DNA of 35,851 bases from Oscillospiraceae bacterium (GCA_015069065.1 SVJI01000002.1:1-35851); one strand, 5' to 3'. Counted from the first letter of the stretch, positions 973 to 32,941 are shown. Numbers and translations are program-made. The notes: generated from the letters alone by a model not told the origin.

Positions 973-1818
973 TTACACTCCACTATATGCACTAAATCCA
1001 CCATCAACGGGGATTACTACACCATTTACAAAACTTGACGCATCCTTGTGCACAAGGAAGAGAAGTGTTCCGATAAGCTCTTCCGCTTTTCCAAATCTAT
1101 CCATGGGTGTTGCTCCGAGGATTTTTCCTGTTCGTGCTGTCGGCGTACCATCTTCATTAAAGAGTAGCTTTTCGTTCTGTTTTGTTACAAAGAATCCCGG
1201 TGCTATTGCATTGCAACGGATATTAGTTTTGGAGAAATGCACTGCAAGCCACTTTGTAAAGTTTGATATTGCAGCCTTTGCCCCGCTATATGCAGGTATC
1301 TTTGTAAGAGGGGTATATGCATTCATACTTGAAATATTGATAATGCTTGCATCTTCCTTTTCAAGCATATCCTTTGCAAATACCTGTGTTGGCAAAAGTG
1401 TGCCGAGGAAGTTAAGATTGAAGACAAATTCTACACCCGACTTATCAAGGTCGAAGAATGTCTTCATATTTCCCATTGCTTCAGGAGTAAAGTATTCATT
1501 ATCCGTTGTTGCTTTTGGGTTGTTACCGCCTGCACCGTTAATAAGAATATCACAAGCACCAAAATCTTTTACAATTTCGTCGTGTGCTTTTTCTATGCTC
1601 TCTTTATCAAGCACATTGCATTCATATCCTTTTGCAATGCCACCGTCTGCATTTATCTTTTCAGCATAGCCTTTTGCGGCATCAACATTTAAGTCAAGCA
1701 GTGCTACCTTTGCACCTGTCTTTGCAAGTGCCTCGGCAAACATTGAGCAAAGAACTCCGCCTGCACCTGTTACTACACATACTTTGCCTGTTAAATCTAT
1801 TTCAAATGGTAATTTCAT
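973..1818 (-). CDS. SDR-family oxidoreductase, probably SDR-type D-mannonate/fructuronate oxidoreductase (UxuB-like).
   Basis: 281 aa with a Rossmann TGAGGVLCS motif, NGAGG, and the catalytic YSGAK (YxxxK). It sits immediately downstream of uxuA. The function is inferred from that pairing and from general family resemblance. Confidence 0.85.
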   Translation of the reverse strand: MKLPFEIDLTGKVCVVTGAGGVLCSMFAEALAKTGAKVALLDLNVDAAKGYAEKINADGGIAKGYECNVLDKESIEKAHDEIVKDFGACDILINGAGGNNPKATTDNEYFTPEAMGNMKTFFDLDKSGVEFVFNLNFLGTLLPTQVFAKDMLEKEDASIINISSMNAYTPLTKIPAYSGAKAAISNFTKWLAVHFSKTNIRCNAIAPGFFVTKQNEKLLFNEDGTPTARTGKILGATPMDRFGKAEELIGTLLFLVHKDASSFVNGVVIPVDGGFSAYSGV

Positions 1819-1843
1819 AAAAATAATCCTTTCGTATTATTTT

Positions 1844-1943
1844 AAATTCGAAATTAGAAGTTCGAAGTTCGAAATGAATGAGAATTTTTGCTACAGCAAA
1901 AATTTTCCATCACTTCGCATTTCGCATTTTACATTTCGCATTT
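1844..1943. repeat. Intergenic heptad tandem repeats flanking a perfect 9-bp hairpin.
   Basis: Plus-strand left arm, 1847-1881: TTCGAAA TTAGAAG TTCGAAG TTCGAAA TGAATGA. Hairpin: AATTTTTGC (1883-1891), loop TACA, GCAAAAATT (1896-1904). Right arm, 1914-1948: TTCGCAT TTCGCAT TTTACAT TTCGCAT TTAACAC. The right arm abuts and overlaps the uxuA stop codon (1942-1944). Confidence 0.8.
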
Positions 1944-2982
1944 AACACTTGCTTTTCTCCAATGTTTCCCATATACCTGCCATATACATCGCACCCAGTG
2001 CTCTGTCATAAAGACCGTAACCAGGCTTTCCTGTTTCTCCCCATATCATTCTTCCGTGGTCAGGACGAAGATAGCCCTTGAAACCACAATCGTGATATGC
2101 TTTAAGGATTTCTACTACATCAAGAGAGCCACACTCGCTTAGATGTCCGCTTTCCTCAAATGAGCCATCGGGAAGTATCTTTATATTTCTTACGTGTGCA
2201 AAGTGTATTCTTCCCATTGCACCGTATTTTCTTACCATAGCGGTATAATCGTTAAATGTTGCACAACCTAATGAGCCGCTGCAAAGGGTAAGTCCGTGAT
2301 GTACATCATCATAAAGAGAAAGGAATCTGTCGATATTCTTCTCATTTGTGATAATTCTCGGAATACCGAAAATTGACCACGGCGGGTCATCGGGGTGTAT
2401 CGCCATATTTACGTCACACTCTACGGCAACGGGGATAATTTCCTTAATAAAGTATTCAAGGTTTGCCCATAAACCTTCTTCGCCGATTGCCTTGTATTTT
2501 TCTATAAGACCTGCCATTTCATCAGGTGTATATGATGCATCCCAACCGGGAAGCGTCATCTTTGTCGGATCCATTTTGTCTACATCTTCCTTATAGTAAA
2601 CAAGTGCGTTTGAGCCGTCAGCAAGAGGCTGGTCAAGGCGTGAACGTGTCCAGTCAAATACAGGCATAAAGTTATAGCATATACACTTTACACCTGCTTT
2701 TGCAAGTCTACGTATATTCTCCTTGTAATTATCTATGTAGAGCTGGTAATTGCCCTGACGAAGCTTTATATCCTCGTGCACGGGAACAGACTCAATAACT
2801 TCCATCTCAAGTCCTTTAGCGTTCACAAGGGCTTTCATTTTATCAATTTCTTCTTGCTCCCAAACCTGACCTACGGGAACACTGTATACAGCCGTTACAA
2901 CACCTGTCATACAGGGAATCTGTCTGATATGGTCAAGAGTGATACTATCACTTTCGCCATACCAACGAAATGTCATTTTCAT
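1942..2982 (-). CDS. uxuA: Mannonate dehydratase.
   Basis: 346 aa. MKMTFRWYGESD..., SVPVHEDIK, CYNFMPVFDWTRS and AIHPDDPP are collinear with the conserved blocks of E. coli UxuA (MEQTWRWYG, SVPIHEDIK, CYNFMPVLDWTRT, AVHPDDPP). Confidence 0.93.
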   Translation of the reverse strand: MKMTFRWYGESDSITLDHIRQIPCMTGVVTAVYSVPVGQVWEQEEIDKMKALVNAKGLEMEVIESVPVHEDIKLRQGNYQLYIDNYKENIRRLAKAGVKCICYNFMPVFDWTRSRLDQPLADGSNALVYYKEDVDKMDPTKMTLPGWDASYTPDEMAGLIEKYKAIGEEGLWANLEYFIKEIIPVAVECDVNMAIHPDDPPWSIFGIPRIITNEKNIDRFLSLYDDVHHGLTLCSGSLGCATFNDYTAMVRKYGAMGRIHFAHVRNIKILPDGSFEESGHLSECGSLDVVEILKAYHDCGFKGYLRPDHGRMIWGETGKPGYGLYDRALGAMYMAGIWETLEKSKC

Positions 2983-3031
2983 ATCATCACCACTCTCTTT
3001 TTCATAATAATAAAGTTATCTTTGAAATTGT

Positions 3032-4021
3032 TTAATTTGTTATTTCTACTTTTTCTGCTGAATCAAACGCACGTATTACAACACGAAGAGGGTGCAGTTC
3101 TTCATCCTGCGACAATGGCATATCATTTCCGTATAAAAGATGCTCTGTAAGAAGTTTAAAATAGTCAACGCAGTCAGAATTTTGTGTATCTATCTCTCCC
3201 TCATCTGCACTGTGGGTATAAAGATGTGTTCTTCTTCCCCCGTCTGTAATTTCAACCATACCTTCTGTACCGAAAATCCTGATGCTTTCATTTCCCCATT
3301 TTCCAAATCCTTTTGGATTCAGATAATTAACGCACGCTGAGGCTACGCCTCCGTTTGAAAGTGTCATTAACCATGAGGATGCTGTGTAAAGTCCCTCGTT
3401 TGGGTTAATATTTCCTAAATGAGTCTGACGCACGTTTACACTTTCAACTTCCAGATCTGTAATATGCTCCAAAAAACGTATTGCGTGTATTCCTGCCTGA
3501 CGTACAAGTCCGCCATCCGTTTCTTCATCCTGCGGTCTGTTATCAATATTCAAAGGATACGATTTTTGCACATACACTTGTATAACTTCTCCTATTTTCC
3601 CGCTCTTGACTAATTTTCTTACTGTCCAGTACGGTTCAACGAATACACTGTCTGCCATTTCGTGAAATTCACATCCGTTTTCTTTTGCGGCAGTTAAAAT
3701 TCTTTCTAAACCATCTTCACTAAAGGCTGCCGGTTTTTCTGCATAAACATGCTTTCCTTCTTTCAAGCACATAATAGCATGTTTTTCCTGTTGGCTACGT
3801 TTTGGAGAACAAAGGCTTATTAAATCTATTGATTTATCTTTAAGCATTTCTTCAAGTGAAGAATATAAAATTATATTGCTACAATGCTCTTTTATTTCAC
3901 TGAAAAATGAATCAGAAACTTCGCATAATGCTACAAGCTCTGCTTCTTCATTATTATACAGCTTATAATGTATCTGATGACCGTAGCTTCCGTATAGACC
4001 TACTCGAAGTTTTTTCTTCAT
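3032..4021 (-). CDS. Gfo/Idh/MocA-family NAD(P)-dependent oxidoreductase (329 aa).
   Basis: N-terminal Rossmann segment LRVGLYGSYGHQ and the family EKP motif (HVYAEKPAA). GGGGAG RBS 8 nt upstream. No signal peptide. Confidence 0.85.
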   Translation of the reverse strand: MKKKLRVGLYGSYGHQIHYKLYNNEEAELVALCEVSDSFFSEIKEHCSNIILYSSLEEMLKDKSIDLISLCSPKRSQQEKHAIMCLKEGKHVYAEKPAAFSEDGLERILTAAKENGCEFHEMADSVFVEPYWTVRKLVKSGKIGEVIQVYVQKSYPLNIDNRPQDEETDGGLVRQAGIHAIRFLEHITDLEVESVNVRQTHLGNINPNEGLYTASSWLMTLSNGGVASACVNYLNPKGFGKWGNESIRIFGTEGMVEITDGGRRTHLYTHSADEGEIDTQNSDCVDYFKLLTEHLLYGNDMPLSQDEELHPLRVVIRAFDSAEKVEITN

Positions 4022-4027
4022 ATCGTC

Positions 4028-5209
4028 TTACTCCCCTTGAAATTCATTTAAAGATAAATCTGTATCTTTATACATCTCTACCATGTGTTCAAACAAACCC
4101 TCTGCATATAAAAGATTTTCTTTTTCTTTTAAAAGCGCTTTTTTTACAGGCTTTATACTAAACTCTTTCTGAATTTTATTTATCATTTTTGTATGCATCG
4201 CCGCCGCATCAATTCCGCAAGGACCATCATCTGTCTTTCCGTCTATTATAGCATCTACTGCCATATGAAGCTTACGGCAATTATCTGCCATTGGGTCACC
4301 ATAAACAATTTTTTCGCCACTATGCATCAATGCAGTAATGTTACCATATTCAATATATTCTTTGGGCATTAGTAATTCAGCCTCATCACACTTTTGTGAT
4401 GAGTAATATACTGTTCCTTTTTCAAAACAATATTCAAAAACTGGTTCTATGGTTTTATTCACGGGGTGTGCTGCAATAAAAGTTGCAGTTTTTCCATCAA
4501 CCTTAAACTGTATTTTTGATACGTCAAAATTCTCAATGTCATTTGCCTTCAAAAGCTCGGCAGTAACATCGGTAGGCTCTGCCGCTTCTTGGTATTTTCC
4601 CATAACAAAAAGCATATTAAAAAGATAGTGTGCGGCAGAATTATTTGCAACGCTGTCATAAACCTTTTTTCCGTCTGCAGTACAAATCTTTCCTGCCCAG
4701 CCAACTCCTCTGCCAAAGTAATCACGGTCACGAGGTCTTAAAATGAGCGTTTTCATTTCCTTTAGCTCCCCGTATTTTCCGTCTGCAATATCTCTTTTAA
4801 GCTTTGTAATCGGTTCACTGTATGACCACTGGTACCCAATATATATGAATTTCCCAGACTGCTTCTGAGCTTCTTTAAGAATTTCAATATCCTTTTCATC
4901 AGAGCAAAGCGGTTTTTCACACAAAACATTTGAGCCGTTACCAAGTGCCGTTAAAATGTGTTGTGTATGCAAAAAAATAGGAGTTGATATCACTGCTAAA
5001 TCAGCTTTATTATTTTTATAAAAGCTCTCCATATCTAAATAAACAGGTATATTTCTGATTTTTAATTCACTTATAAGCGAACATCTTTCGGGATATGGAT
5101 CAACAACACCTGTCAAATTAATTCTAGAGTTTGTTTTTTCTAAAATCTCCCTGACAAAAGTGTTTCCGTAGCCACCTATTCCAACTAAAACGACATTTAC
5201 ACATTTCAT
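4028..5209 (-). CDS. Gfo/Idh/MocA-family oxidoreductase (393 aa) with an extended C-terminal domain.
   Basis: VVLVGIGGYGNTF Rossmann segment and VLCEKPL motif. Its ATG overlaps the nagA stop (ATGA, 5206-5209), which suggests translational coupling. Confidence 0.85.
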   Translation of the reverse strand: MKCVNVVLVGIGGYGNTFVREILEKTNSRINLTGVVDPYPERCSLISELKIRNIPVYLDMESFYKNNKADLAVISTPIFLHTQHILTALGNGSNVLCEKPLCSDEKDIEILKEAQKQSGKFIYIGYQWSYSEPITKLKRDIADGKYGELKEMKTLILRPRDRDYFGRGVGWAGKICTADGKKVYDSVANNSAAHYLFNMLFVMGKYQEAAEPTDVTAELLKANDIENFDVSKIQFKVDGKTATFIAAHPVNKTIEPVFEYCFEKGTVYYSSQKCDEAELLMPKEYIEYGNITALMHSGEKIVYGDPMADNCRKLHMAVDAIIDGKTDDGPCGIDAAAMHTKMINKIQKEFSIKPVKKALLKEKENLLYAEGLFEHMVEMYKDTDLSLNEFQGE

Positions 5210-6366
5210 GCCTTTTCCTCCTTTGCAACCAACACCTTTTTAATGTTTACATCATCATCAAAAATTACTATATCTGCATCATAGCCTATTTCCAGTTTTC
5301 CTTTTGTATGAAGCTTCATTATACGTGCGGGAACTTCTGTAATCATTTTAACGGCTGATTCAAGCGGTATGCCTGTCTTTTTAACACAAGTTCTGACTAA
5401 TACATCGGTCGTTGCAATACTTCCTGCAAAAGCACTTCTGTCAGCAAGCTTTGCAACACCGTCCTCAATTATGTAGGGCACATTTCCGTTTTCGCTTGTT
5501 TCATTCTCAATATTTGTCATACCGCCGTGACGGATTGCATCTGTGACTAAACACATATGCTCTTCACCCTTTTGTTTATACACCAGCTTTAATAACTCGG
5601 GTGGCAAATGGCATCCGTCAGCTATTGTTTCAACATCTATATCGTCATATAGATATGCTGTTTCAGTTACGCCTAAAATGCGAAACCCGCCTTTTCTTGT
5701 AATGGTAGATGTGCAGGAATAAAGATGTGTAATGAGCTTCATCCCGTTTTCATATGCACTCTTTATATCTGCATATTCCGCATCGGTATGCCCTGCTGAT
5801 GCAACGATACCCTTTTCATTGAGAAACCTCAAAAATTCATCTGCACCCTCAAGCTCGGGTGCATAGCTCCAACGTGCTATAACATCGCAGTATTCAGTAT
5901 AGAGTTTCTCATATTCTGCTTTATTTGGTGTGCGTATAAAGGACGGGTCCTGTGCACCGCTTTGCTTTGGTGAAAAATACGGGCCTTCAAGATGTGCACC
6001 GTAAATGTGGGGAATTACGTCTGCACTGTCCTTATACTCCTTTAATGCAGCAAGTGCCTTTGAGGTTTTTTCGTTATCATAGGCAGATATTGTGGGATAA
6101 ATTGTTGTTGTACCATGCTTTGCGTGGACATTTGCCGCTTCCTTTATTGCTTCAAAACTTCCATCAACAAATTCATATCCTGCTCCGCCGTGAACGTGTA
6201 TGTCAACAAACCCCGCTGACACATAGTTTCCCTCTGCATCAATTTCTTCGTCAAATGGAAGTTCCATTTCCGTTATATCAAGGATTTTTCCGTTCTGTAT
6301 ATAAAGGCTCTTATTAACAATTCCAGCAGGTGTAATCAGCTTGCCGTTTTTTATTTTAGTAATCAT
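5206..6366 (-). CDS. nagA: N-acetylglucosamine-6-phosphate deacetylase family.
   Basis: 386 aa. Motifs: GFVDIHVHGGAGYEF (metal-binding HxH plus GG), HLEGPYFSP...GAQ, AGHTDA, THLYS and VTDA, all NagA hallmarks. It has a 4-nt overlap with nagB. Confidence 0.9.
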   Translation of the reverse strand: MITKIKNGKLITPAGIVNKSLYIQNGKILDITEMELPFDEEIDAEGNYVSAGFVDIHVHGGAGYEFVDGSFEAIKEAANVHAKHGTTTIYPTISAYDNEKTSKALAALKEYKDSADVIPHIYGAHLEGPYFSPKQSGAQDPSFIRTPNKAEYEKLYTEYCDVIARWSYAPELEGADEFLRFLNEKGIVASAGHTDAEYADIKSAYENGMKLITHLYSCTSTITRKGGFRILGVTETAYLYDDIDVETIADGCHLPPELLKLVYKQKGEEHMCLVTDAIRHGGMTNIENETSENGNVPYIIEDGVAKLADRSAFAGSIATTDVLVRTCVKKTGIPLESAVKMITEVPARIMKLHTKGKLEIGYDADIVIFDDDVNIKKVLVAKEEKA

Positions 6367-7121
6367 AAAAGCTTTGCCCCGCTGTCTTTATCGCAGTACA
6401 TAATTGCATTATCATGCTTACGCATAATTGTTGCAGGTAACTCCTCGTTAATTTCATTATTAACCGTCTTATATACTGCATCTGCCTTTGTAGCTGCGGG
6501 TACTGTGCAGAAGAGGTAATCTGCGTTAAAGAGCGTAGGCACTGTAAGAGTCAGGGCATATTTCGGTACATCGTCAATTTTTGCAAAGCATCCGTCATTA
6601 ACCTGCTGCTGACGGCAAACCTCATCAAGCTCTACCCTCTTAATTACCTCTTTATCATTAAAATCAGCAACCCACGGATCATTAAATGCAATGTGACCAT
6701 TCTCACCTATTCCGAGGCATACAATATCAATGGGATTTTCTTTTATAAGCTTTGTGTAGCGTGCGCAGGTTTCCTCTGCAGTTTCTCCCTCTGCATAAAT
6801 ATAATTAACGCTCTTAAACGGAAGCTTACTGAATATTGCATTCTTTAAGAAATTACCGAAGCCCTGCGGTGCATCAGGAGAAAGTCCTATGTATTCATCC
6901 ATATGAAATGCGTTTACTCTGCCCCAGTCAATTCCTTCTGCCTTAATTAAAGCTGCAAGTGTTTCATTCTGAGAGGGTGCTGCCGCAAAAATCATATTTA
7001 CTTCTTCTTTTTCAGTAAGAAGCTTTCTGATACAATCTGCTGCATCACTGCCTGCTTTGTTTCCCATTTCCTCTCTTGTATCAAAAATCATTACCTTTAA
7101 CTTGTCTTTCTGTATTATCAT
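6363..7121 (-). CDS. nagB: Glucosamine-6-phosphate deaminase/isomerase family (NagB-like; 6-phosphogluconolactonase/GlcN6P isomerase fold).
   Basis: 252 aa with FHMDEYIGL and LGIGENGHIAFNDP motifs. It is adjacent to and coupled with nagA. It has FAAAPSQ where canonical NagB has ATGxTP, so the exact substrate is less certain. Confidence 0.8.
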   Translation of the reverse strand: MIIQKDKLKVMIFDTREEMGNKAGSDAADCIRKLLTEKEEVNMIFAAAPSQNETLAALIKAEGIDWGRVNAFHMDEYIGLSPDAPQGFGNFLKNAIFSKLPFKSVNYIYAEGETAEETCARYTKLIKENPIDIVCLGIGENGHIAFNDPWVADFNDKEVIKRVELDEVCRQQQVNDGCFAKIDDVPKYALTLTVPTLFNADYLFCTVPAATKADAVYKTVNNEINEELPATIMRKHDNAIMYCDKDSGAKLL

Positions 7122-7123
7122 AA

Positions 7124-7702
7124 TTAACCCTCTTCTATACTAAATTCATAAAGTCTGTTTATTCCCTCACACGCAGTAAAGCCCACGTGAAAGGTTTCGG
7201 GGATGTCTTCGTGTTCCACAATGCCCTTTACACCGTTCACATCAATTACAAAACGCTTTTCCTCTACCTTCAGCGTAATTTCGCAAATAGCACCATCTTC
7301 AATTTTAAAATGCTCTGCCAAAATTTTTGATGGTGCTACAGGTTTTTGCGTATTTTCAGGTGTGGGAACAATTCTCCATACATTAAAACCATCCTCATAT
7401 GCAACAACTTCAAAATGCAAACCATATCGTTTTATTTCTCCGTCTAAAAACATATCGTCAGTCAATGCAATAATGGGTGCACCATAAGAATCGAAGGAGC
7501 ATTTTAGATATATCGTTACACCCGTTTTATAACGTGCCTTTGAAATCATACTGATATATTCAAAAATTCCGTCATACTCAAAATTTCTTATATGGTCATC
7601 CTCCTCAATAAACTCTCCAAAGGTTTTACATATAGGAGAATAAACATATTCAAAATCATCCTTTTGCCACCCGTTCCTTTTAAAAACGTACTCTTTCTTC
7701 AT
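7124..7702 (-). CDS. Hypothetical cytoplasmic protein (192 aa), possibly a small concanavalin/LamG-like jelly roll (reminiscent of DUF1961/YesU-type proteins).
   Basis: Uninterrupted ORF packed 2 nt from nagB and 9 nt from the upstream gene. No signal peptide. The C-terminal HVGFTACEGINRLYEFSIE resembles the last strands of lectin-like domains. The fold call is a weak guess. Confidence 0.7.
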   Translation of the reverse strand: MKKEYVFKRNGWQKDDFEYVYSPICKTFGEFIEEDDHIRNFEYDGIFEYISMISKARYKTGVTIYLKCSFDSYGAPIIALTDDMFLDGEIKRYGLHFEVVAYEDGFNVWRIVPTPENTQKPVAPSKILAEHFKIEDGAICEITLKVEEKRFVIDVNGVKGIVEHEDIPETFHVGFTACEGINRLYEFSIEEG

Positions 7703-7711
7703 AAAACCACC

Positions 7712-9592: not shown

Positions 9593-9666
9593 AGTTCTGC
9601 CTCCCAGAGAACAACTTATTTTCTCTAACAGTATTAATTGAGTTCATTCTTCACAAATTACCAAAA

Positions 9667-10554
9667 TTATATTTCATCTTTTAATTTAAACAAACGAATT
9701 GCGTTTTCTCTGCATATTTTACGGTAATTTTCTTCACTGATACAACCTTTTTCCAAGGAGGCATCAAGCCAATCTGAAAGATATGTTTCCTGATGTGCAC
9801 GGCATATATCCGTTCCGAACATCAGTCTATCGGAAAATTCTTCAATAAAACGGTATGCAAAATCACTGTCTCGTGACATTGCGTTATAACCGCTTCCTGC
9901 AGAAAGGTCGCAGTAAAGGTTGGGGTAATGGCGCATAAGTTCAACCACTCTTCCCGCATTCACTTTACCTGTGACATAGTCGCCACGGTTTTCCTCGGTA
10001 ACATTGTCACCGATCTCGTTCCAGAAGCACTGCGAATGGCCCATAATTGTTAGGTTAGGATACTTTTTCAACATTTTTTCAAGACGTGGCAAACCCAAAT
10101 CGTCAATAATTCCGTATTCCTCTCCTTTACCGCATGCAAAATGAATAGTCACGGGCATATCACACTGGGCACAGTGATAGAACAGATTATCCATAAGGGG
10201 GGCATCCGCATATATATTTGCAGTCAATTCTCCTACCCCTATTGCACCACGGCTCTTGTAATCAAGCAAAAGCTCCGAAAAATCAGTGGCAGGTGAATTC
10301 TGCCCCATTCTGGGGTCAATGTTACAAAACCAATAAAAAGTATCAGAATACTTGTTCGCAAGATACTCCATTTCTTCATTCGTCTGAATGCAGTAATGGG
10401 CTTCCGGACTGATAAGCGGTAGCAAAAATCCTTTATCTATACCAAGCTCAGTATAGCTTTCTTTGATTTCCTCCGGTTGCACAAGAATACATCCCGAATG
10501 CAACTTTGCACCATTCCACATACTTGAATGAATATGTACATCAATTTTTTTCAT
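9667..10554 (-). CDS. Amidohydrolase-2 (TIM-barrel metal-dependent hydrolase) family protein (295 aa), a possible sugar lactonase or decarboxylase-type enzyme.
   Basis: MKKIDVHIHS (HxH metal ligands at the first strand), later GHSQ and FGTD motifs. I prefer the ATG at 10554 (AAAGAGGG 6 nt upstream) over the track start at 10656. Confidence 0.8.
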   Translation of the reverse strand: MKKIDVHIHSSMWNGAKLHSGCILVQPEEIKESYTELGIDKGFLLPLISPEAHYCIQTNEEMEYLANKYSDTFYWFCNIDPRMGQNSPATDFSELLLDYKSRGAIGVGELTANIYADAPLMDNLFYHCAQCDMPVTIHFACGKGEEYGIIDDLGLPRLEKMLKKYPNLTIMGHSQCFWNEIGDNVTEENRGDYVTGKVNAGRVVELMRHYPNLYCDLSAGSGYNAMSRDSDFAYRFIEEFSDRLMFGTDICRAHQETYLSDWLDASLEKGCISEENYRKICRENAIRLFKLKDEI

Positions 10555-10665
10555 GCGTTTGCCCTCTTTCTGCTGTAATTTCATTCTCTGCTTTTTTGCA
10601 AAAGCTTTATAACACCCGTACGTTCTTATACCTGTCTGTATAACAACATAATTCACATAAATTCA

Positions 10666-11859: not shown

Positions 11860-11893
11860 ATATTTATCTCCTTGCATTCACACGATTAAAATC

Positions 11894-12844: not shown

Positions 12845-12849
12845 TTATA

Positions 12850-13731: not shown

Positions 13732-13833
13732 CTAACTCTCCTCCCTGAGGTATAAACAATCAAAATCTACGGTGTCGGGCACAAATATATCAGCGCCCTG
13801 CCTTACCACAAGGCGCCGACATACCTGCTCTAG

Positions 13834-21195: not shown

Positions 21196-21211
21196 ATTCA
21201 TCCTCCCTTTC

Positions 21212-26194: not shown

Positions 26195-26219
26195 CGTTTT
26201 CTCCTTTCTGTTAGTCGTT

Positions 26220-28496
26220 CTACTGTATTTGCGCAACCTTCAGATTATCAAATACAGAGGCATCTCTGAAGCTATATAATGCAACAGTTCCGATTGAATG
26301 GGTGCTATCTTCTGCCTCACCGATTTTTTCACCGTTTATGTAGAAGGTAAAGCGGCTTCCCTTTGCTTCTATACCGAAATTGTAGTATTCGTTATCCTCT
26401 ATGGGATATGACCACGTTTCTATAACCTGCAAAGAGTTATTTATCCATTTTGCAAACTGAAAAGCCTTTCCTGATGTTCTGAGTGTATAACCTTCTTTTC
26501 CATTATCTGTCAGTCGGAAAATCAAACCTACATTCTTATCATTTGAGGATGATGGTGCTTTTATATCCGCAGACACTGCATAGTCAGACCAATTACTTCC
26601 TCCATTATAAATAAACACACACCTGTTTTCTCCCCATACGGTTTGCTTTAGCATACCGCCCTCAATCATCCAGTCACCAAGCCTTTCGCTCCAGTTCTCC
26701 TGTTCTATTTTAGAAAAATCTTCTGTCAGAAGGCTTTTCCCCTTTGGTGTAAAGCGACTTAGGCTTCCCGATATTTCAAAGGTTTCTTTTTCATCAGGGT
26801 TTTTCACACACTGAAAAGCACCCATATTAGGATTTGTACCGGCTACACATCCGTCTGCATCAAACAGTTCTAACTCGTACACTTTTCCGTCAAAACCGAT
26901 AAATTCTTTTTTTATAATTTCTCCGCTGTGCACCGCAGGACTATGAGCGATAATGCGCCAGTTGCTCTCATCATTAATAAATTCTGGCAATCCAAATTTA
27001 CTGTGTTTCTCCTCTGTTTCGGGGTATGCTTCATAAAAAAGATTGTAATCAGAACTGAATGATGAAACACTCTTATTAAACCGATATGCATCTGCATCGC
27101 TCTTCGCAAAAATATTATTTCTTAAAATTATGTTTGAATTAGTCGGGCTGTTAAAGCTCATTCCCGTTGCAGCACCGCAAATTACATTATTGAATATACG
27201 GCTATTTTTTACACCATTAAGGGAAATTCCATTTTTTGTTTCCCCATCCTTTACACATGATATTACATTATTCCATATTGCACAGTGCGAAACGGCAAAT
27301 TCATCTTTGCTTTCTTTTCCAAGAAGCAGTGCCGCCTCTATCGTTTCACTGTCATTTGTAAAAAGATTATTGCAAATCATCAAATCCTTTGTCGCTGCAT
27401 CTACATAAACAGAGTAATCCGATGAGTTTTTAAATTCGTTTCCTTTAAAAACAACCTCTTTACAATTTGTTATATTCGCCTGAGAATTTATAAAGGAGTT
27501 ATCCTCTATAAACAAATTCTGAGAGTTATCAAGAACAATCTTACTTTTAATTTTATTACCGACAAGATTAAAAGCATTGACATTTCCTTTAATTAAAGGA
27601 GTGTCATCACTGTTTTCTGAGAAGTCAAAATTTTTAATGCTTACATTTGAACTTCCTTGTAAAAATGTAATGTGTTCCTGCTCGGATTTAGGGAAAATAA
27701 TAACAGCACCATGCTTATTTCTTGACTTTATACATATATCTGCATTTACACAAGCATTCTTCGTTTCAATATATTTTCCATCCTCAAAAATGACACTTTG
27801 TCCCGCCTTTAATGTTTCTGTTGCTTTTTTAAAGCTTTTCCACGGGCTAAGATAGCTTCCGTTGTTTTCGTCAGAGCCATCGGGCGAAACAAAAAACACA
27901 TCGGGGCAGGCAATATCTATCAGTACACTCTTTTCATCTGCGCCCTCTCCCGGAAGTATATACATCGAATTTAAAAGCATTTGCGACAATTCGCCACGAG
28001 TAAGAACCTCTCCTCTGACAACATCCAAACTGTGTGTTATTCCGACTTCTGCTGCGGTAAGAAGCGTTCCCCACGGATAACCTCCGTAGCTTTTCGCTTT
28101 TTTATCATACCCGAGAACATTTACAAGCACGCTTGCCGCTTCCTCAAACAAAACATTTTTATCGGGACAAAAGCTTCCGTCAGGGTAGCCGTTTATATAG
28201 CCTTTTTCCTGTATTGCATTGATATAGTCTTTAGCCCAGTGGTTTTCACCAACGTCACTGAATTTTGTTTGTATATCCGGAATTTCTGCTTTTATAATGC
28301 GCACCAAAAGTGCTGCAAGCTCCGCCCTCGTCACATTATCTTCTGTTTTAAGATTTCCGTTTTCATCACCTTGCAAAATTCCAAGCTCGCAAAGCTCCTG
28401 CGCTGCAGAAGATTGTTTAGACAAATTATTTTCTGCTGCGACCTGTATGCCAAACAGATTTAGTATAACTAATATATATAATAGTAGTTTTTTCAT
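26220..28496 (-). CDS. SLH-anchored right-handed parallel beta-helix protein with a C-terminal concanavalin/LamG (DUF1080-type) domain (758 aa). Candidate polysaccharide lyase or hydrolase.
   Basis: ATG at 28496 (MKKLLLYILVILNLFGIQVAA) with GGAGGAG upstream; the track start at 28508 is a GTG. N-terminal SLH triplet (FSDVGENHWAKDYINAIQEKGYINGYPDGSFCPD, YGGYPWGT). The beta-helix entry motif is FFVSPDGSDENNGSYLSPWKSFKKATETLKAGQSVIFEDGKY, followed by repeated NN(L/V/I)(F/I) rungs. The C-terminal segment runs from GDWMIEGGMLKQ to VFDNLKV. Confidence 0.88.
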   Translation of the reverse strand: MKKLLLYILVILNLFGIQVAAENNLSKQSSAAQELCELGILQGDENGNLKTEDNVTRAELAALLVRIIKAEIPDIQTKFSDVGENHWAKDYINAIQEKGYINGYPDGSFCPDKNVLFEEAASVLVNVLGYDKKAKSYGGYPWGTLLTAAEVGITHSLDVVRGEVLTRGELSQMLLNSMYILPGEGADEKSVLIDIACPDVFFVSPDGSDENNGSYLSPWKSFKKATETLKAGQSVIFEDGKYIETKNACVNADICIKSRNKHGAVIIFPKSEQEHITFLQGSSNVSIKNFDFSENSDDTPLIKGNVNAFNLVGNKIKSKIVLDNSQNLFIEDNSFINSQANITNCKEVVFKGNEFKNSSDYSVYVDAATKDLMICNNLFTNDSETIEAALLLGKESKDEFAVSHCAIWNNVISCVKDGETKNGISLNGVKNSRIFNNVICGAATGMSFNSPTNSNIILRNNIFAKSDADAYRFNKSVSSFSSDYNLFYEAYPETEEKHSKFGLPEFINDESNWRIIAHSPAVHSGEIIKKEFIGFDGKVYELELFDADGCVAGTNPNMGAFQCVKNPDEKETFEISGSLSRFTPKGKSLLTEDFSKIEQENWSERLGDWMIEGGMLKQTVWGENRCVFIYNGGSNWSDYAVSADIKAPSSSNDKNVGLIFRLTDNGKEGYTLRTSGKAFQFAKWINNSLQVIETWSYPIEDNEYYNFGIEAKGSRFTFYINGEKIGEAEDSTHSIGTVALYSFRDASVFDNLKVAQIQ

Positions 28497-28511
28497 ACTC
28501 TCCTCCACTTT

Positions 28512-30572
28512 TTAATCCGTCACCTGATATACTCCTATATCCCATACTGATTTTCTTTCTTTTCCGTTCCAATCGATGGGTATTATTGATTTTTGCTTGT
28601 TGTCAAAGCTTGTATAGGTTGTAGGAATCATAATTCCCGCCCCTATTGCAGGACTATTACTTTTAAGAGTAAAATCTCCCTTTTCAGGATTGACAAAGCC
28701 CGGGTCACTATATTTACTGTTTTCTTCCTTAGGAGCTTCTCCCGCATCACTGTAAATATTATAATCACTCTTAAAATTCTCCGGTTCATAGGCAATGTCA
28801 TACACCATTGGACTATCTTTAAAAATATTATTATATACCTCTACATTTCTGTTGGGCGGGTCCCATCCCCAACCGTAGCGTGTCGCCATATTGCTGCTGA
28901 CACGTACAGAGGCGATTGACGTTCCCATAACAATATTATTGAATACTCTCGTATCTTTGGCACTGCATATTAAAAGCCCCCATCGTATTCTTCTGTTTGG
29001 AGAATATACAATATTATTGTATACATTGCAATTATACATTTCAAAGCCGGTTCCCTCTTTATTATCAAGAGTTGAATTTTTATCCGTAAGACCTCCCACG
29101 GTAAATGCCGCATCCGACAGGCTTACCTCTGTATTATATACGAGATTATTGTATATAAGGCTGTCACGTGTACCGCCCTTAAACATGATGCCTGAACGCC
29201 CGGACTCAATTATTTTATTGTTTCGCACAATCAGATTGGAGCAATTTACACCATCTATACCCTCGTGAACGGAGCCATATACAATATTATCTTCTATAAT
29301 ACAGTTGTCTGAAAGATGGAGCTTAATCCCTTCCTCGTATACTTTTTCAAAATAATTTCCCCTGATTATAACATTGCTGCCCCCACGTGTCCGCAGCAAA
29401 ATATCCGCTGTTGGCGAAGGGTCGCTCGATGATGCAATGTCCTCCTGTGCAAAATAGATATCTTCAACAGCGACATATGATACGCCTAAATCAAGGTCAA
29501 ATTTACTCATACAAATCAAATCTTTACTGTAAATAATTTTCGCCTTATGTTTATTTCGTGCTTTTATCACAATTGGCGCAAATTCTGTTCCACTGTTTTC
29601 AAGAACAGTTATATGCTCTTCAAAATATTCTCCATCCTCCAAAATCAAAACAGAACCTGCCTCAAGCTTTTTAATTGACTTATACATCGTTTTCCACGGT
29701 TTTTCCTCTGTTCCGGGGTTATCATCAGAGCCGTTTGGCGAAATGTAATATGTAGCATAGACACCGCTTTTAATCTGACGGGGAGTTCGTTTTATGTCAT
29801 TCATCAATATATCCAAAGAGTTTGCCATAAGCTGTGCCGCTTTCCCACGGTTAATAGTGTTTTCAAATTCTGTGGGAACCGTTTCTGTTATGCCCAGGTT
29901 TGCAGCTTCCAAAAGATAGCCGTACGGGTAACCCCCTCTTTTTTCTCCGTTCTCTGCATATCCTAATGCGCAAACTAAAATTTTAACTGCCTGATTATAT
30001 GTAACGGGGTTATCGGGAAGAAATCTGTTACCGCTGAAGCCTCCTATCAACCCCCTCTTGGTCGCTTCTGAAATTAATGCATAAGCCCAATGGTTACTAA
30101 GCACGTCATTATATATTATCCTTGAACCTTCAACATTGTTAATTTCATTTCCGGGGGTAATCATTCTCATCACTGCCGCTACAAATTCTGCCCTGGTTAA
30201 TGTCTTTTCTGCCCTGAAAGTTCCATCTTCATATCCATTCAGCACATTAAGTTTTGAAAGTTCACGTGCAGCGTTCTCATACATTGATCCCTCAAGGTCT
30301 GAATATTCCTTTTCACCCGTTTCTTTCAATGTATCTTTTTCTACTGATGCATCAATGTAACTATCAAAAATCATTTCATCATCTTTGTTTTGTGTTTCTT
30401 CTTCGCCTCCCATTTCCTCCTGCGCTATCTCCCATTCAAGCACATCTATAACATTATCAGCATCGTTTTGTGTTCCATCCTGTGCAAAACTGATACAGGT
30501 AAACAATGTTGATGTTATTAACACGTATGAAATCATTGCCTTTCTTAAAAAAATTGTTCTCTGTCTTTTCAA
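28512..30572 (-). CDS. SLH-anchored right-handed parallel beta-helix protein (686 aa), paralogue of the downstream gene. Candidate polysaccharide lyase or hydrolase.
   Basis: TTG start at 30572 with GGGAG 8 nt upstream. This gives a classic signal peptide, MKRQRTIFLRKAMISYVLITSTLFTCISFAQD. An acidic linker is followed by an SLH triplet (YSDLEGSMYENAARELSKLNVLNGYEDGTFRAE; YNDVLSNHWAYALISEATKRGLIGGFSGNRFLPD; RGGYPYGY). The entry motif is YYISPNGSDDNPGTEEKPWKTMYKSIKKLEAGSVLILEDGEY. PbH1-like rungs are present (NNKII, NNLVY, NNIVY, NNIVM, NNIF). Confidence 0.88.
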   Translation of the reverse strand: MKRQRTIFLRKAMISYVLITSTLFTCISFAQDGTQNDADNVIDVLEWEIAQEEMGGEEETQNKDDEMIFDSYIDASVEKDTLKETGEKEYSDLEGSMYENAARELSKLNVLNGYEDGTFRAEKTLTRAEFVAAVMRMITPGNEINNVEGSRIIYNDVLSNHWAYALISEATKRGLIGGFSGNRFLPDNPVTYNQAVKILVCALGYAENGEKRGGYPYGYLLEAANLGITETVPTEFENTINRGKAAQLMANSLDILMNDIKRTPRQIKSGVYATYYISPNGSDDNPGTEEKPWKTMYKSIKKLEAGSVLILEDGEYFEEHITVLENSGTEFAPIVIKARNKHKAKIIYSKDLICMSKFDLDLGVSYVAVEDIYFAQEDIASSSDPSPTADILLRTRGGSNVIIRGNYFEKVYEEGIKLHLSDNCIIEDNIVYGSVHEGIDGVNCSNLIVRNNKIIESGRSGIMFKGGTRDSLIYNNLVYNTEVSLSDAAFTVGGLTDKNSTLDNKEGTGFEMYNCNVYNNIVYSPNRRIRWGLLICSAKDTRVFNNIVMGTSIASVRVSSNMATRYGWGWDPPNRNVEVYNNIFKDSPMVYDIAYEPENFKSDYNIYSDAGEAPKEENSKYSDPGFVNPEKGDFTLKSNSPAIGAGIMIPTTYTSFDNKQKSIIPIDWNGKERKSVWDIGVYQVTD

Positions 30573-30620
30573 TTCAAATGCTCCCTTCTTTTCCCATACT
30601 GCGGCATTTTTTCTAATTAT

Positions 30621-30666
30621 ATTTTAGCATTGCAATCATAGCTTTTTCAAGTGACAGTAACTATGA
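30621..30666 (-). promoter_or_regulatory. Candidate sigma-A promoter plus upstream operator box for the structural operon.
   Basis: On the minus strand: TTGAAA (30650-30645), an 18-nt spacer, then TAAAAT (30626-30621), about 45 nt upstream of the TTG start. TCATAGTTACTGTCAC lies immediately upstream of the -35. The same layout recurs at 32983-33025 and 33067-33111. Confidence 0.55.
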
Positions 30667-30704
30667 TTATACTGACACATCCTTGCAATTTATCCTGTAT
30701 GTGG

Positions 30705-30744
30705 AAAAGGAAAAAAGGCAGACCGCAAATATATGCAATCTGCC
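30705..30744 (-). terminator. Rho-independent terminator after the AraC-type regulator gene.
   Basis: On the minus strand: GGCAGA TTGCATATATTTGCGG TCTGCC followed by TTTTTTCCTTTTCC. The stem is 30744-30739 paired with 30722-30717, and it starts 17 nt after the stop codon. Confidence 0.6.
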
Positions 30745-30760
30745 CCTAAAATGGGATATT

Positions 30761-32941
30761 TTACTCTTTATTCTTATTTCTCAAACGATAAAGCGAACGC
30801 ACATTGCCAAATCCCGACATCTGTGCAATTTTTTCAAGAGAGAACTTTCCCTCTTTAATTAGTTTATTGGCGTATGCCATTCTGACATTGTTAATATAGC
30901 TGAGTACCGTCATTCCTGTACTTTCCTTAAAGATTTTTGACACATGGGGTTTGCTCAGATTAAAATGATGTGCAATCATCTCAATACAAAGGTTTTGGTC
31001 TGCAAAATTCTCCTCAATATATTTTTGAATTTCTTCTGCATGAATTACAGTACGGGAACGCTTTCTTGTAACGTCATCTGCAAATATATCGCAAGCCCGT
31101 TTTACAAAGTCCATAAGTTGTTTTGTTATCTGCTGTGTTGACTGCATTGACGAACTGACATCTTTATAAAAATCGAAAAACTCTCTCAGTTCAATATTAT
31201 CATTTGTGCTTTCCGCCAAAATTTTGGTAATTGTCGATATAATATCAAGAACTACAAAATTAAAATAGCACCGTTCTGCCTTTGCTTCAACATCCTGCAA
31301 AAGCTCGCTGACAATCGAAAGTGCGTCTTCCTTATTGCCAATTTTTATGCTCTGAACAAGTCCACGTTCTTTATAAATGTTGAATGAGTAAGTTTCTTCA
31401 TTTTTTTGTGGCATCCGAAACTCTTCCGCAAGTTTCTCAAAAAGGCTTGGCAACCTCAAAATCCCTTCACACGATTCTGAAAATTTAATTTCGAGATTAA
31501 TTGAAAATTGCTCGTTAATAAATCTGACACCTTCCAAGGCAGTCTGTCTTATTCTGTCAACATTACAAGTTTCGTTAACACCTACAAGACACAGATTGAA
31601 AGCATCCGCCGACGCAGAGAAAATCTCCGTGTTATGTCTTGCAAATAGCTCGCTCATTACGTTATTTATAATGTAACTTAGATGGTACATCTTCTCAAAA
31701 TTAGACATCTGTTCATCTTCTGCAAAAAAGGATGATAAAGAATTAAGATAAAACACCGCAAGAATATACTCTTTGTCCTCGAAAAAGGCGTTATATTCAT
31801 CAAGCAACTGGGACGACATATTCCCCTGAATAATCTGTGGAAATGATGATGCCTGTAGCTTGCTTTCAACAGCTTTTAGGTTTGTTGCCATTTTATCCTT
31901 TTCTAAAAATATGTTTTCTATAGAATCGTGTAAAAACTCAAACTCCCCTTTTTCGCCCGGTGTGCCAAATACATCTACCAACCTTTTAATCGGCGTGTAA
32001 TTAATTCTGAGAAGATACCTTATAAGTAAGCTGAGAATTATCAGAGCAATGATTCCTGCAAACACAGTTCCATTTTTAAGAACAATGGTTCTTAAGTTGA
32101 GCTCATTTTGTGGAACTCGCAATGCAATATACCAGTTTCCGTCAAGCATACTGATTGGACTTATAAACATACTGTAGGAATTATCACTGTATTTTCTCGC
32201 CGCTGTAATCGTTTGCGGAACAACATCGTCCTTTGTCTTTTTTTCGTGAATTGCCAATCTTCCGTATGCATTGTAGATAAAAATATCACTTGCAGGCTCC
32301 CACGTCACAGTAGAAAGTCCTCCGATGAAATTCTGCTTATTACTTAAAACAACAAAATTATTGCCGCTGCTATCGGGAATACACCCCATCAGCATAATTG
32401 TATCAACAGGTTTGCCTAAATCTCCTGAATACGTCATACTTCCGTATATATCACGGTTTATATCCTTTGAAACAACACTCTTCCAATCTTCATATGAAAT
32501 TCCCGTTTCGGCAAAATAGGCATCGTGGAAAAGCTTGCTGTGAACTATTCCCGTTTTACACAAAACACTATCCGTTTCTTTTAGATATATAAAAAACAAA
32601 TCTATTTTATTATCGTAGCTTGCGTACTCCTTTATATCTTCAAGCATTTCCCATGTAGTATCATTATAAAAATAATTATCATTTTTTTGCGAAATAATAT
32701 CAGATAATTTTTCGTTTAAAAGAAGCTGCCTCTGAAAATTTTTCATTGACCACACGCTGTCCTCAAAGGATGATGTTACAGTATCAACTATATATTCATT
32801 AAATGCCTCCGATGTTTTCTTCAGCGAAGAATGATATGCAACTATCACCGTCAGCGCAAAGAATATCAAAAGGAAAGCAACTATGCAGTAGGAAATAATA
32901 CTCATTGTCTTGTAACTTTTTGAAACATATCTAATTTTCAT
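30761..32941 (-). CDS. Membrane-spanning one-component AraC/XylS-family transcriptional regulator (726 aa): TM1, ~250-aa extracytoplasmic sensor domain, TM2, cytoplasmic linker domain, AraC HTH.
   Basis: TM segments MSIISYCIVAFLLIFFALTVIVAY and GTVFAGIIALIILSLLIRYLL. The C-terminal segment is IQKYIEENFADQNLCIEMIAHHFNLSKPHVSKIFKESTGMTVLSYINNVRMAYANKLIKEGKFSLEKIAQMSGFGNVRSLYRLRNK, an AraC double HTH. There is no receiver or kinase domain. AAGGAGTG RBS upstream of the ATG at 32941. Confidence 0.88.
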   Translation of the reverse strand: MKIRYVSKSYKTMSIISYCIVAFLLIFFALTVIVAYHSSLKKTSEAFNEYIVDTVTSSFEDSVWSMKNFQRQLLLNEKLSDIISQKNDNYFYNDTTWEMLEDIKEYASYDNKIDLFFIYLKETDSVLCKTGIVHSKLFHDAYFAETGISYEDWKSVVSKDINRDIYGSMTYSGDLGKPVDTIMLMGCIPDSSGNNFVVLSNKQNFIGGLSTVTWEPASDIFIYNAYGRLAIHEKKTKDDVVPQTITAARKYSDNSYSMFISPISMLDGNWYIALRVPQNELNLRTIVLKNGTVFAGIIALIILSLLIRYLLRINYTPIKRLVDVFGTPGEKGEFEFLHDSIENIFLEKDKMATNLKAVESKLQASSFPQIIQGNMSSQLLDEYNAFFEDKEYILAVFYLNSLSSFFAEDEQMSNFEKMYHLSYIINNVMSELFARHNTEIFSASADAFNLCLVGVNETCNVDRIRQTALEGVRFINEQFSINLEIKFSESCEGILRLPSLFEKLAEEFRMPQKNEETYSFNIYKERGLVQSIKIGNKEDALSIVSELLQDVEAKAERCYFNFVVLDIISTITKILAESTNDNIELREFFDFYKDVSSSMQSTQQITKQLMDFVKRACDIFADDVTRKRSRTVIHAEEIQKYIEENFADQNLCIEMIAHHFNLSKPHVSKIFKESTGMTVLSYINNVRMAYANKLIKEGKFSLEKIAQMSGFGNVRSLYRLRNKNKE

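Follow-up and report, generated by a model that had tools for sequence, protein, structure and literature searches.

A putative polysaccharide utilization locus with S-layer-anchored beta-helix proteins, apparently carried by a mobilizable element, in an Oscillospiraceae bacterium

The window analysed here, a stretch of 35,851 nt from an Oscillospiraceae bacterium (GCA_015069065.1, SVJI01000002.1:1-35851), carries a long co-directional array of 18 genes (g1 to g18) on its minus strand, preceded by a gene for a membrane AraC-type regulator. The locus is a real polysaccharide utilization locus (PUL); it belongs to a known kind of system, of which it is an uncharacterised member, and involves no new chemistry. 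The analysis was computational throughout, combining sequence comparison with predicted structures. With somewhat better than even confidence, we interpret the locus as a Gram-positive PUL on a mobilizable element that is dedicated to an O-acetylated, anionic glycan of N-acetylhexosamine (HexNAc) and hexuronate and works by the mechanism proposed below. Such a composition of HexNAc, hexuronate and O-acetyl groups is coherent. The substrate is read in this way because an esterase, the GH109 and DUF4838 glycosidases with NagA and NagB, and UxuA with a short-chain dehydrogenase/reductase (SDR) occur together; it might come from the host, as a glycosaminoglycan (GAG)-like glycan, or from microbes, as a polymer of their capsule or wall.

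Gram-positive PULs (gpPULs) of gut Firmicutes were defined for Roseburia and E. rectale by the presence of a degrading enzyme, a transporter and a regulator (PMC5320581). The present locus contains the enzymes g9, g11, g5 and g1, a solute-binding protein (SBP) with two permeases, and the AraC regulator. The family matches agree with the preliminary description of this DNA, which had proposed a Gram-positive PUL with an ATP-binding cassette (ABC) importer, NagA/NagB and UxuA/SDR. As in the gpPULs of that study, enzymes, ABC importer and AraC-type regulator are found together and the secreted enzymes have binding modules; some of those gpPULs also include GH109 and CE12. It differs from them in its surface enzymes, which are anchored by S-layer homology (SLH) domains, in an unclassified beta-helix protein as the likely depolymerase with a pseudo-enzyme paralogue, in its unusual length (18 genes, ~30 kb) and in its apparent position on a mobilizable element.

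In the proposed mechanism, the AraC-type sensor with two transmembrane segments would turn on one long operon. At the cell surface g2, g3 and g4 would hold or present the glycan, the unanchored SGNH esterase g5 would strip O-acetyl groups, and the SLH-anchored g1 would cut the polymer, either by Ca-assisted beta-elimination as in the polysaccharide lyase (PL) families PL6 and PL9 or by hydrolysis. The oligosaccharides would then be imported by the SBP and the two-permease ABC system, with an ATPase encoded elsewhere. In the cytoplasm, the GH109 enzyme g9 and the DUF4838 protein g11 would remove alpha- and beta-linked N-acetylhexosamines; NagA and NagB would deliver the amino sugar to glycolysis; the SDR-type mannonate oxidoreductase and UxuA would carry the hexuronate branch to 2-keto-3-deoxygluconate (KDG); and g10, g12, g15 and g16 may do side steps. 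The order of these events, the choice between lyase and hydrolase, and the substrate are what we infer from the domain and family assignments given below. Genes lie on the minus strand unless stated otherwise, and comparison loci are denoted by L numbers.

Cytoplasmic glycosidases and the HexNAc and hexuronate pathways

The g9 protein (10666..11877; 403 aa) can be assigned with confidence to GH109, the family of NAD-dependent alpha-N-acetylgalactosaminidases. It matches Glyco_hydro_109_C (PF21252, 9.4e-57) and the Rossmann NAD-binding domain (PF01408, 2.8e-9). It is also homologous across the Rossmann and GH109 C-terminal domains to the GH109 enzyme NagA of Elizabethkingia meningoseptica (2IXA, 7.6e-99; 2IXA 18-439 on query 7-408) and to the Akkermansia enzyme 6T2B (7.7e-71), both as full-length matches. 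Unlike these two, g9 has no signal peptide and is therefore predicted to be cytoplasmic. A pattern search of g9 did not find the exact motif GGHGG, which is reportedly the conserved catalytic loop in a study of Akkermansia GH109.

The g11 protein (7712..9592; 626 aa) contains DUF4838 at residues 136-498 (PF16126, 1.4e-27; 97.1 bits against a cut-off of 26.6) and lacks a signal peptide; it is probably a cytoplasmic beta-N-acetylhexosaminidase of the GH163/GH185 type. According to PMC10570127, DUF4838 is the catalytic domain of the CAZy families GH163 (BT1035) and GH185 (Sp_0475); both enzymes are beta-N-acetylglucosaminidases, GH185 uses substrate-assisted catalysis, and the Sp_0475 residues Q174 (Q/E), H227, D309 and Y436 were probed by mutagenesis. 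The same paper describes Sp_0475 as a 6-sulfo-beta-GlcNAcase, with 6S-GlcNAc-beta1,6-GalNAc as the probable natural substrate. In g11, H226, D307, Y413 and Y415 are invariant in 118 homologues, and Q167 is Q in 102 of them and E in 16. Taking the Sp_0475 residues as given there, g11 Q167, H226, D307 and Y413/Y415 match Q174, H227, D309 and Y436 by position only, and the His-to-Asp spacing is 81 residues in g11 versus 82 in Sp_0475. Thus, the preliminary description, which had recognised no classical glycoside hydrolase (GH) in the locus, needs correction: g9 is a full-length GH109 member, and g11 carries the GH163/GH185 catalytic domain.

g11 shares with Sp_0475 the DUF4838 domain and the cytoplasmic location, but differs in two respects. 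By a positional argument, the sulfate-binding R633 has no counterpart in g11, which has no Arg after R593 and in which R585 and R593 are variable; moreover, g11 homologues often stand alone among housekeeping genes. For example, close homologues are found alone among lgt, folD, rpmF and ruvABC in L019 and L021, which hints at a constitutive role for such lone homologues, possibly in reusing amino sugars from the cell's own wall. With so many lone copies, genomic context was of little value as a substrate clue for g11. In L002-L004, GH109 genes flank the DUF4838 gene. A further feature of g11 is Cys274 together with a CxCxxC motif (313/315/318), invariant in 118/118 homologues and near the putative catalytic D307. 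These four cysteines may form a metal site; the available portion of the GH185 paper (PMC10570127) does not discuss such a cluster.

The N-acetylglucosamine-6-phosphate deacetylase NagA is encoded by g14 (5206..6366; 386 aa), which scored 253 bits with TIGR00221 (equivalog cut-off, 225.65). The preceding gene g13 (6363..7121; 252 aa) encodes a NagB-family deaminase/isomerase (Glucosamine_iso, 1e-17; PDB 2BKV, 2.7e-27), although its TIGR00502 score of 135 bits is below the cut-off. The catalytic Asp and His and the Lys208 equivalent of NagB are kept, and the TGGTP phosphate loop (AAAPSQN instead) and the Arg172 equivalent are missing. The genome collection contains at least 590 close relatives from the g13 subfamily; among the best 80 loci of these relatives, NagA was found in 59 and UxuA in only 4. 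From these sequence comparisons, g13 is most readily understood as the usual NagB enzyme in these lineages. NagB of this type is a common NagA partner in gut Clostridia and Bacteroidales (L033-L112).

For the hexuronate branch, g17 (1942..2982; 346 aa) is the D-mannonate dehydratase UxuA (PF03786, 7.8e-143; TIGR00695, 378 bits, above cut-off) and g18 (973..1818; 281 aa) is an SDR-type, UxuB-like D-mannonate oxidoreductase (NF006132, 2.3e-136; 453.7 bits against a cut-off of 281). The substrate clues had been described as conflicting. Instead, the NagB-NagA pair directly adjoins UxuA-SDR in L035, L102 and L103; this adjacency supports a recurrent module for combined HexNAc and hexuronate catabolism. 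In L035, positions 8112-13832 encode an AraC protein with a cupin domain, a xylose-isomerase-like TIM barrel, NagB, NagA, UxuA and the SDR, with 70-90% identity to the genes of the window. This operon is without Gfo/Idh/MocA genes, and its TIM barrel may substitute for the uronate isomerase that is absent.

The beta-helix proteins g1 and g2

The g1 protein (28512..30572; 686 aa) consists of a signal peptide, an SLH region and a right-handed beta-helix of catalytic type, with Pfam matches to SLH, Beta_helix, Chondroitinas_B, Pel9A-like and DUF1565; it is the likely candidate for the depolymerase of the locus. The Pel9A-like match (PF22842, 26.6 bits) is barely over its cut-off of 25.2, and DUF1565 reached 21.5 bits against 20.3. 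The AlphaFold2 model of residues 250-686 is a beta-helix with a pLDDT of 94.7. A profile built from g1 relatives matched the GH120 structure 3VST (1.4e-24), the GH136 structures 7V6M and 5GQC, the PL9 structures 5OLQ (1.2e-16) and Pel9A 1RU4 (1.1e-10, over profile positions 78-376), and, in PL6, 7DMK (1.3e-16), 7O84 and chondroitinase B (1.6e-12). The top scores are due mostly to a common N-terminal cap (query positions ~74-162); without the cap, the best match of the core profile was the PL6 alginate lyase 7O84 (4e-4). A Foldseek search with the g1 model ranked GH136 (7V6I, 8.6e-14, best), GH120, PL6 and PL9 together, with template modelling scores (TM-scores) to all solved families of only 0.4-0.55; that of GH136 was ~0.5, in a match dominated by the N-terminal cap. 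Because these families rank together at such TM-scores, the profile and model comparisons place g1 in the PL6/PL9/GH120/GH136 beta-helix superfamily but outside each solved family.

The large proteins of the locus had been considered unassignable and their depolymerizing chemistry possibly undescribed. The former holds for g3, g4 and most of g5, in which sequence searches could assign no catalytic family; it does not hold for the beta-helix proteins, which match PL6, PL9, GH120 and GH136 significantly. Since the beta-helix proteins match these families by both profile and fold, ordinary beta-elimination or hydrolysis is much more likely than an undescribed chemistry.

When the g1 core is aligned with 7O84, its HEGxD motif lies over the Ca-binding ExE of PL6, with E437 as the first Glu and Gly in place of the second, and KGG lies over the RHG that bears the catalytic Arg. 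In comparison with the PL6 and PL9 lyases, g1 shares the right-handed beta-helix, the DUF1565-type N-terminal cap, acidic residues on successive coils followed by a basic residue on the next coil, profile matches of 1e-16 to 1e-10 and a core that aligns onto the PL6 Ca site. However, it lacks the PL6 catalytic Lys, has HEGxD for ExE and KGG for RHG, and shows an identity of only 12-16%. With the GH136 lacto-N-biosidases (LnbX, BsaX, TnX) and the GH120 xylosidase XylC, it has in common the architecture of cap and beta-helix (best scores, 8.6e-14 and 1.4e-24); here the similarity is concentrated in the cap, and g1 has no inserted domain.

The conserved charged residues of g1 are E413, E414, K417, H436, E437, D440, R450, R459, K465 and E511. 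The spacings of 24 residues between E413 and E437 and of 48 between K417 and K465 point to a charged patch stacked on three successive coils (E413/E414/K417, H436/E437/D440 and R450/R459/K465), as judged from this periodicity. Acidic residues followed by Lys or Arg are the pattern of Ca-dependent lyases and of uronate-binding GH28-type hydrolases, and the acidic and basic patch of g1 suggests an anionic substrate. Pel9A has a four-Asp Ca site and a catalytic Lys; the likeness of g1 to it is an analogy of spacing only (E413 to E437). In an exhaustive search with clustering at 50% identity, the g1 family had 103 representatives at E<=1e-30, 660 at E<=1e-10 and 7617 at E<=1e-3. A word-indexed search had given 52; with 103 at E<=1e-30 in the exhaustive search, the idea of a rare family was dropped and the family is regarded as mid-sized.

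The next gene, g2 (26220..28508; 762 aa), encodes a signal peptide, an SLH region, a beta-helix paralogous to that of g1 (29% identity over 593 aa) and a C-terminal module like carbohydrate-binding module family 66 (CBM66; DUF1080). Residues 630-757 match the CBM66 of the levanase SacC (4AZZ, 4B1L and 4B1M, ~4e-10). The motifs of g1 are invariant in four loci, L012, L013 and L014 among them; in the g2-type proteins of four independent loci, none of the charged residues is kept and no alternative common charged set was found. Because the charged set is lost and a CBM66-like module is present at the C-terminus, g2 is probably a non-catalytic binding partner, a pseudo-enzyme. A g2-type paralogue is always kept beside g1 in these loci, as a conserved pair of enzyme and pseudo-enzyme.

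Other surface proteins

Signal peptides were predicted in g1 to g5 and a lipobox in g6; neither was found in g9 to g18. The five secreted proteins g1-g5 total 5012 aa, and SLH domains are present in four of the five, the esterase g5 being the exception, in accordance with the earlier description of four SLH proteins plus a free esterase of about 5000 aa together. Pfam SLH matches occur in g1, g2, g3 and g4, and TRAE-type motifs in g1, g2 and g4. SLH-anchored carbohydrate-active enzymes include the pectinases of Monoglobus pectinilyticus and the SLH xylanases of Paenibacillus and Thermoanaerobacterium. In these systems, SLH triplets tether the proteins non-covalently to the wall, as they would in the locus, and PL9-like beta-helices and CE12 esterases occur beside uronate catabolism. 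Unlike them, the present locus has no recognisable member of PL1, PL9, GH28 or CE8; GH109, DUF4838 and NagA/NagB argue against pectin as the substrate.

The largest surface protein, g3 (21212..26236; 1674 aa), contains Laminin_G_3, two Big_5 domains and three SLH repeats at the C-terminus in Pfam. It is a tandem duplication of a ~660-aa laminin G-like (LamG)/Big_5 module (residues 72-733 versus 781-1439; 39% identity, 6e-170), and a Gly-rich linker (G run at ~1467-1477) lies ahead of the SLH repeats. The g4 protein (18532..21201; 889 aa) is an all-beta orphan anchored by an SLH triplet. Only six relatives were found at E<=1e-5 among 5.8e9 proteins, and its AlphaFold2 model, from this six-sequence alignment, is poor (pLDDT 57). 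The sole part that resembles a solved structure is the N-terminal SLH triplet (TM 0.73-0.79 to the SpaA-SLH trimer); the beta-propeller-like matches in Foldseek have TM <0.1 and were dismissed as meaningless. Neither g3 nor g4 had a match in the PDB sequence search. Homologues of g4 at 26% identity occur in other, unrelated SLH PULs (L024, L026), downstream of SBP-permease genes. In both loci there are genes for a membrane AraC sensor like that of the window and for a ~1070-aa protein that combines Cu_amine_oxidN1, DUF4962 (heparinase II/III-like N-terminus) and F5/8-C domains.

The unanchored secreted protein g5 (15479..18484; 1001 aa) has two LamG-like modules, aBig_2 and a C-terminal SGNH esterase domain similar to carbohydrate esterase family 12 (CE12). 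Lipase_GDSL_2 matched at 2e-14, and all four SGNH blocks are present (GDS790, GSNT837, GHND868 and DYTH967). The CE12-type similarity is weak (YxiM 2O14, 2.2e-9; rhamnogalacturonan acetylesterase 1DEO, 1.6e-4), and the PaeY family model scored 60 bits against a cut-off of 1000. A metagenome scan with the g5 alignment returned one irrelevant 2-kb match only.

Importer, regulator and transcription signals

The importer is encoded by g6 (13834..15411; 525 aa), a lipoprotein SBP (SBP_bac_1, 1.4e-19; lipobox LFTAC), and by the permease genes g7 (12850..13731; BPD_transp_1, weak, with NCBIfam matches of the GlcU, UgpE and MalG-like type) and g8 (11894..12844; BPD_transp_1, 2.4e-12). The g6 protein is 84% identical to its L012 counterpart; no close relative was found among the GTDB representative genomes. 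The g6 transporter was rejected as an anchor for comparing loci, since relatives at 36-39% identity occupy different PULs.

The regulator gene (30761..32941; 726 aa) encodes HTH_18 (3.3e-12) and HTH_AraC (3.3e-9) domains at its C-terminus. Because two hydrophobic segments (~13-35 and 286-312) bracket a loop of ~250 aa, the protein is taken to be of the membrane sensor type, which bears out the earlier suggestion of a dedicated membrane AraC sensor upstream. With its own promoter-like site (33011-32983) and its own terminator (30747-30714), the gene is a separate transcription unit by sequence signals.

The co-directional array was described earlier as 20 ORFs. Its extent from 30572 to 973 stands; the open reading frame (ORF) listing of the window gives 18 ORFs, or 19 genes if the AraC regulator is included, and every gap is too small for a further gene. 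The spacing between genes ranges from -17 to +123 nt, rather than from -4 to about 100 nt as first reported; the value of -17 assumes a TTG start for g3. The promoter-like site proposed for the array is present at 30621..30650 on the minus strand, 49 nt upstream of the g1 start; it is a consensus match only (TTGAAA-18-TAAAAT with extended TG, 10/12 positions). The proposed terminator (first placed at 688-736) was also recovered, as an intrinsic terminator-like hairpin at 697..736 on the minus strand with a 17-bp stem, including 6 GC pairs, followed by a T-run. Terminator-like sites were not found in the intergenic gaps inside the array, and such matches inside its genes are as frequent as in shuffled sequence. 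It is plausible from these signals that all 18 genes are on a single transcript. An Rfam search of the whole window gave no matches.

Conservation of the surface cassette in related loci

In L012, the order g1-g2-g3-g4-g5-SBP-permease-permease is kept with 47-86% identity. L013, L014 and L114-L117 have the g1-g2-g3 genes together as well. In two relatives, L012 and L014, the next gene encodes a g4-type protein, and in L014 the SBP comes after it. In L114/L115, a relative of the locus at ~52% identity, a homologous AraC gene of 733 aa lies directly upstream of the g1 homologue and precedes the g1-g2-g3 genes; the retrieved sequence ends within the g3-type gene. A third beta-helix protein of 872 aa with Big_5, Pel9A-like and Chondroitinase_B matches is encoded between the g2-type and g3-type genes there (6913-9531).

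In three species known from metagenome-assembled genomes (MAGs; L013, L116, L117), a chromosomal copy of the cassette, as beta-helixA, beta-helixB-DUF1080 and a giant beta-helix fusion, is found at the same place downstream of rpmE-secG-rnr, and an MsmX/MalK-like ATPase gene lies a few kb upstream of it. The third protein in L013 and L014 is a g1-like helix fused to a g3-like region. The SLH proteins after the g3-like fusion in L013, L116 and L117 resemble g3, and no g4 match was found after the fusion in these three. Related genes were found in Clostridia MAGs from the hindgut of goat, sheep, yak, buffalo, deer and rabbit.

Mobile-element setting and remaining genes

A mobilization module is located beside the locus on the plus strand (33361..34988), with a MobC/NikA-like gene and a MobA/VirD2 relaxase (PF03432, 1.1e-37); MobC/NikA was also recognised in L030-L032. 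At the other end, a small gene of the element backbone on the minus strand (88..591) resembles sigma-70 region 4 (Sigma70_r4_2, 4.2e-7). Past this gene, the longer contigs L015-L018 continue with HTH_16 and then a large serine recombinase (Resolvase/Recombinase/Zn_ribbon_recom/DUF4368). The PUL is thus flanked by MobC/relaxase on one side and by the sigma-r4-like gene, HTH_16 and serine recombinase on the other. Identical proteins recur in many metagenomes, on 16-21 contigs that are mostly 20-50 kb long. Because of these flanks and identical copies, the locus fits the cargo of an integrative mobilizable element of ~40 kb in uncultured ruminant-hindgut Clostridia. In the plasmid collection, the sole match was one of 84 nt where mobC and the relaxase gene meet in Enterococcus plasmids.

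Several genes of the array have no defined place in the pathway. The g10 protein is an Amidohydro_2 metal hydrolase (9667..10656; 329 aa as the longest ORF; PF04909, 2.5e-13). Its true start is probably M35 (MKKIDVHIH): this start, 34 codons into the longest ORF, carries the HxH metal motif, and the L020 homologue has 299 aa. In L020, the g10 homologue is immediately followed by that of g11; in L007, a single gene separates the two and the g10 homologue is ~1.8 kb upstream. The cytoplasmic protein g12 (7124..7702; 192 aa) gave a weak DUF5611 match only and no matches in NCBIfam; PDB sequence searches with g10, g11 and g12 found none. Two Gfo/Idh/MocA oxidoreductases are g15 (4028..5209; 393 aa; NAD(P); PF01408, 6e-18) and g16 (3032..4021; 329 aa; PF01408 and PF22725; 3IP3, 4.6e-19). 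The best PDB matches of g15 cover the Rossmann domain only, namely DgpA 7XR9 (1.2e-12, with a concatenated query) and, far weaker, glucuronide 3-dehydrogenase 8TDI (1.8e-5).

Alternative explanations

Some results weigh against a HexNAc-hexuronate PUL with g1 as its depolymerase. The pathway is incomplete within the locus: UxaC, KDG kinase, KDG aldolase and a sugar kinase were not found among the window proteins by Pfam or NCBIfam, and the locus encodes no ABC ATPase. If g1 is a lyase, genes for unsaturated uronates of the GH88/GH105 or KduI/KduD type would be expected, and none is present in the locus. In the alignment of g1 with 7O84, the PL6 catalytic Lys is replaced by Asn and the catalytic Arg by a hydrophobic residue beside K465, and the TM-scores of g1 are low. 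Furthermore, no transporter or regulator is visible with the cassette in the retrieved sequence of L013, L116 and L117. The locus might instead harvest host mucin or N-/O-glycans, with g1 as a GH136-like hydrolase that releases short HexNAc units from neutral or sulfated glycans, GH109 and DUF4838 finishing GalNAc-alpha and GlcNAc-beta cores, and UxuA/SDR as a general catabolic add-on. The GH136 lacto-N-biosidases are the best Foldseek matches of g1 (8.6e-14), the DUF4838 gene of L002-L004 is flanked by GH109 genes, cecum, colon and rectum are the sources of the related MAGs, and both GH109 and GH185 are linked to mucin-type structures (for GH185, the probable natural substrate 6S-GlcNAc-beta1,6-GalNAc). 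Nevertheless, we regard this explanation as unlikely: the GH136 match has a TM-score of ~0.5 and lies mostly in the cap; the locus lacks a sialidase, a fucosidase, a galactosidase, a sulfatase and a GH112-type partner; no counterpart of R633 is seen in g11; and the invariant Lys/Arg-rich patch of g1, like UxuA and the SDR, speaks for an anionic substrate with uronate. A lower probability still is given to a cell-envelope role, in which the g1-g2-g3 cassette, with the g4-type protein, would serve S-layer-associated remodelling or adhesion on the cell's own or neighbouring wall polymers and the catabolic link would be secondary. The position of the cassette beside rnr, secG and rpmE in L013, L116 and L117, with no adjacent regulator or transporter in the retrieved sequence, would suit such a role, as would the absence of an enzymatic signature in g3 and g4 and the recurrence of g4-like proteins in unrelated SLH loci. 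However, the cassette is joined to an AraC sensor, a sugar ABC importer or both in the window, L012, L014 and L114/L115, and here it seems to share one promoter and one terminator with the catabolic genes.

Novel chemistry has also been considered, in which glycosidic bonds would be broken mainly by NAD-dependent oxidation and elimination, with Gfo/Idh/MocA proteins and DUF1080 as a hydratase, as in the 3-keto pathway of BT2156-2160, instead of by GH or PL enzymes. The locus does encode three proteins of the Gfo/Idh/MocA fold (g9, g15 and g16), the Pfam name of the g2 module is '3-keto-disaccharide hydrolase', and the N-terminal domain of g15 matches DgpA and glucuronide 3-dehydrogenase. On the other side, the BT_2158 and BT_2159 models (NF058561, NF058563) scored only 20-30 bits on g9, g15 and g16 against cut-offs of 650-750, and no lyase of the AP_endonuc_2/xylose-isomerase type is present in the window except for a sub-threshold match inside UxuA. 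Moreover, DUF1080 is extracellular here, fused to an SLH beta-helix and closest to a CBM66 lectin module, and g9 is a regular member of GH109, a family with a known NAD-dependent mechanism. The oxidative pathway was rejected for its low family scores and absent lyase partner, and is judged slightly less probable than the envelope role; the earlier proposal of Gfo/Idh/MocA proteins as bond-cleaving candidates falls with it (~30 bits against a cut-off of 750, no partner lyase encoded). Least probable of all, and only marginally credible, is an aminouronate route in which NagA would deacetylate a 2-acetamido-2-deoxy-hexuronate and the NagB-like g13 would deaminate the product directly to fructuronate. 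This would explain UxuB and UxuA without UxaC, which is absent from the window, and could be in keeping with the missing TGGTP loop and Arg172 equivalent of g13 and with the NagB-NagA genes that abut UxuA-SDR in a few genomes. The route was downgraded after the neighbour survey of g13-subfamily loci, since this very common subfamily (at least 590 relatives), with NagA in 59 and UxuA in 4 of its best 80 loci, indicates ordinary GlcNAc-6-P catabolism, and g14 exceeds the NagA equivalog cut-off.

Significance

The locus is one among many PULs whose substrate is unknown; it requires no new bond-cleaving chemistry and opens no long-standing question. What is noteworthy is the unclassified beta-helix family, the conserved pseudo-enzyme partner, the orphan accessory proteins and the mobile-element context. 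As a tentative extension, which we consider possible rather than probable, the g1 family (~100 clusters at 50% identity, E<=1e-30) might represent new, CAZy-level SLH-anchored depolymerases with an obligate dead paralogue (g2) and g3/g4-type accessory proteins. These would act on a HexNAc-uronate glycan that no Firmicute system is known to degrade, whether a GAG-like glycan of the host or a wall or capsule polymer of microbial or archaeal origin, and would be spreading on a mobilizable element among ruminant-hindgut Clostridia. Should the surface cassette prove to be a depolymerase complex, it would provide a workable way into a mid-sized beta-helix family in which neither a characterised member nor an assignment at family level was found, together with a pairing of enzyme and pseudo-enzyme conserved across loci. 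It would also be an example of a complete Firmicute PUL that travels on a mobilizable element in the herbivore hindgut.

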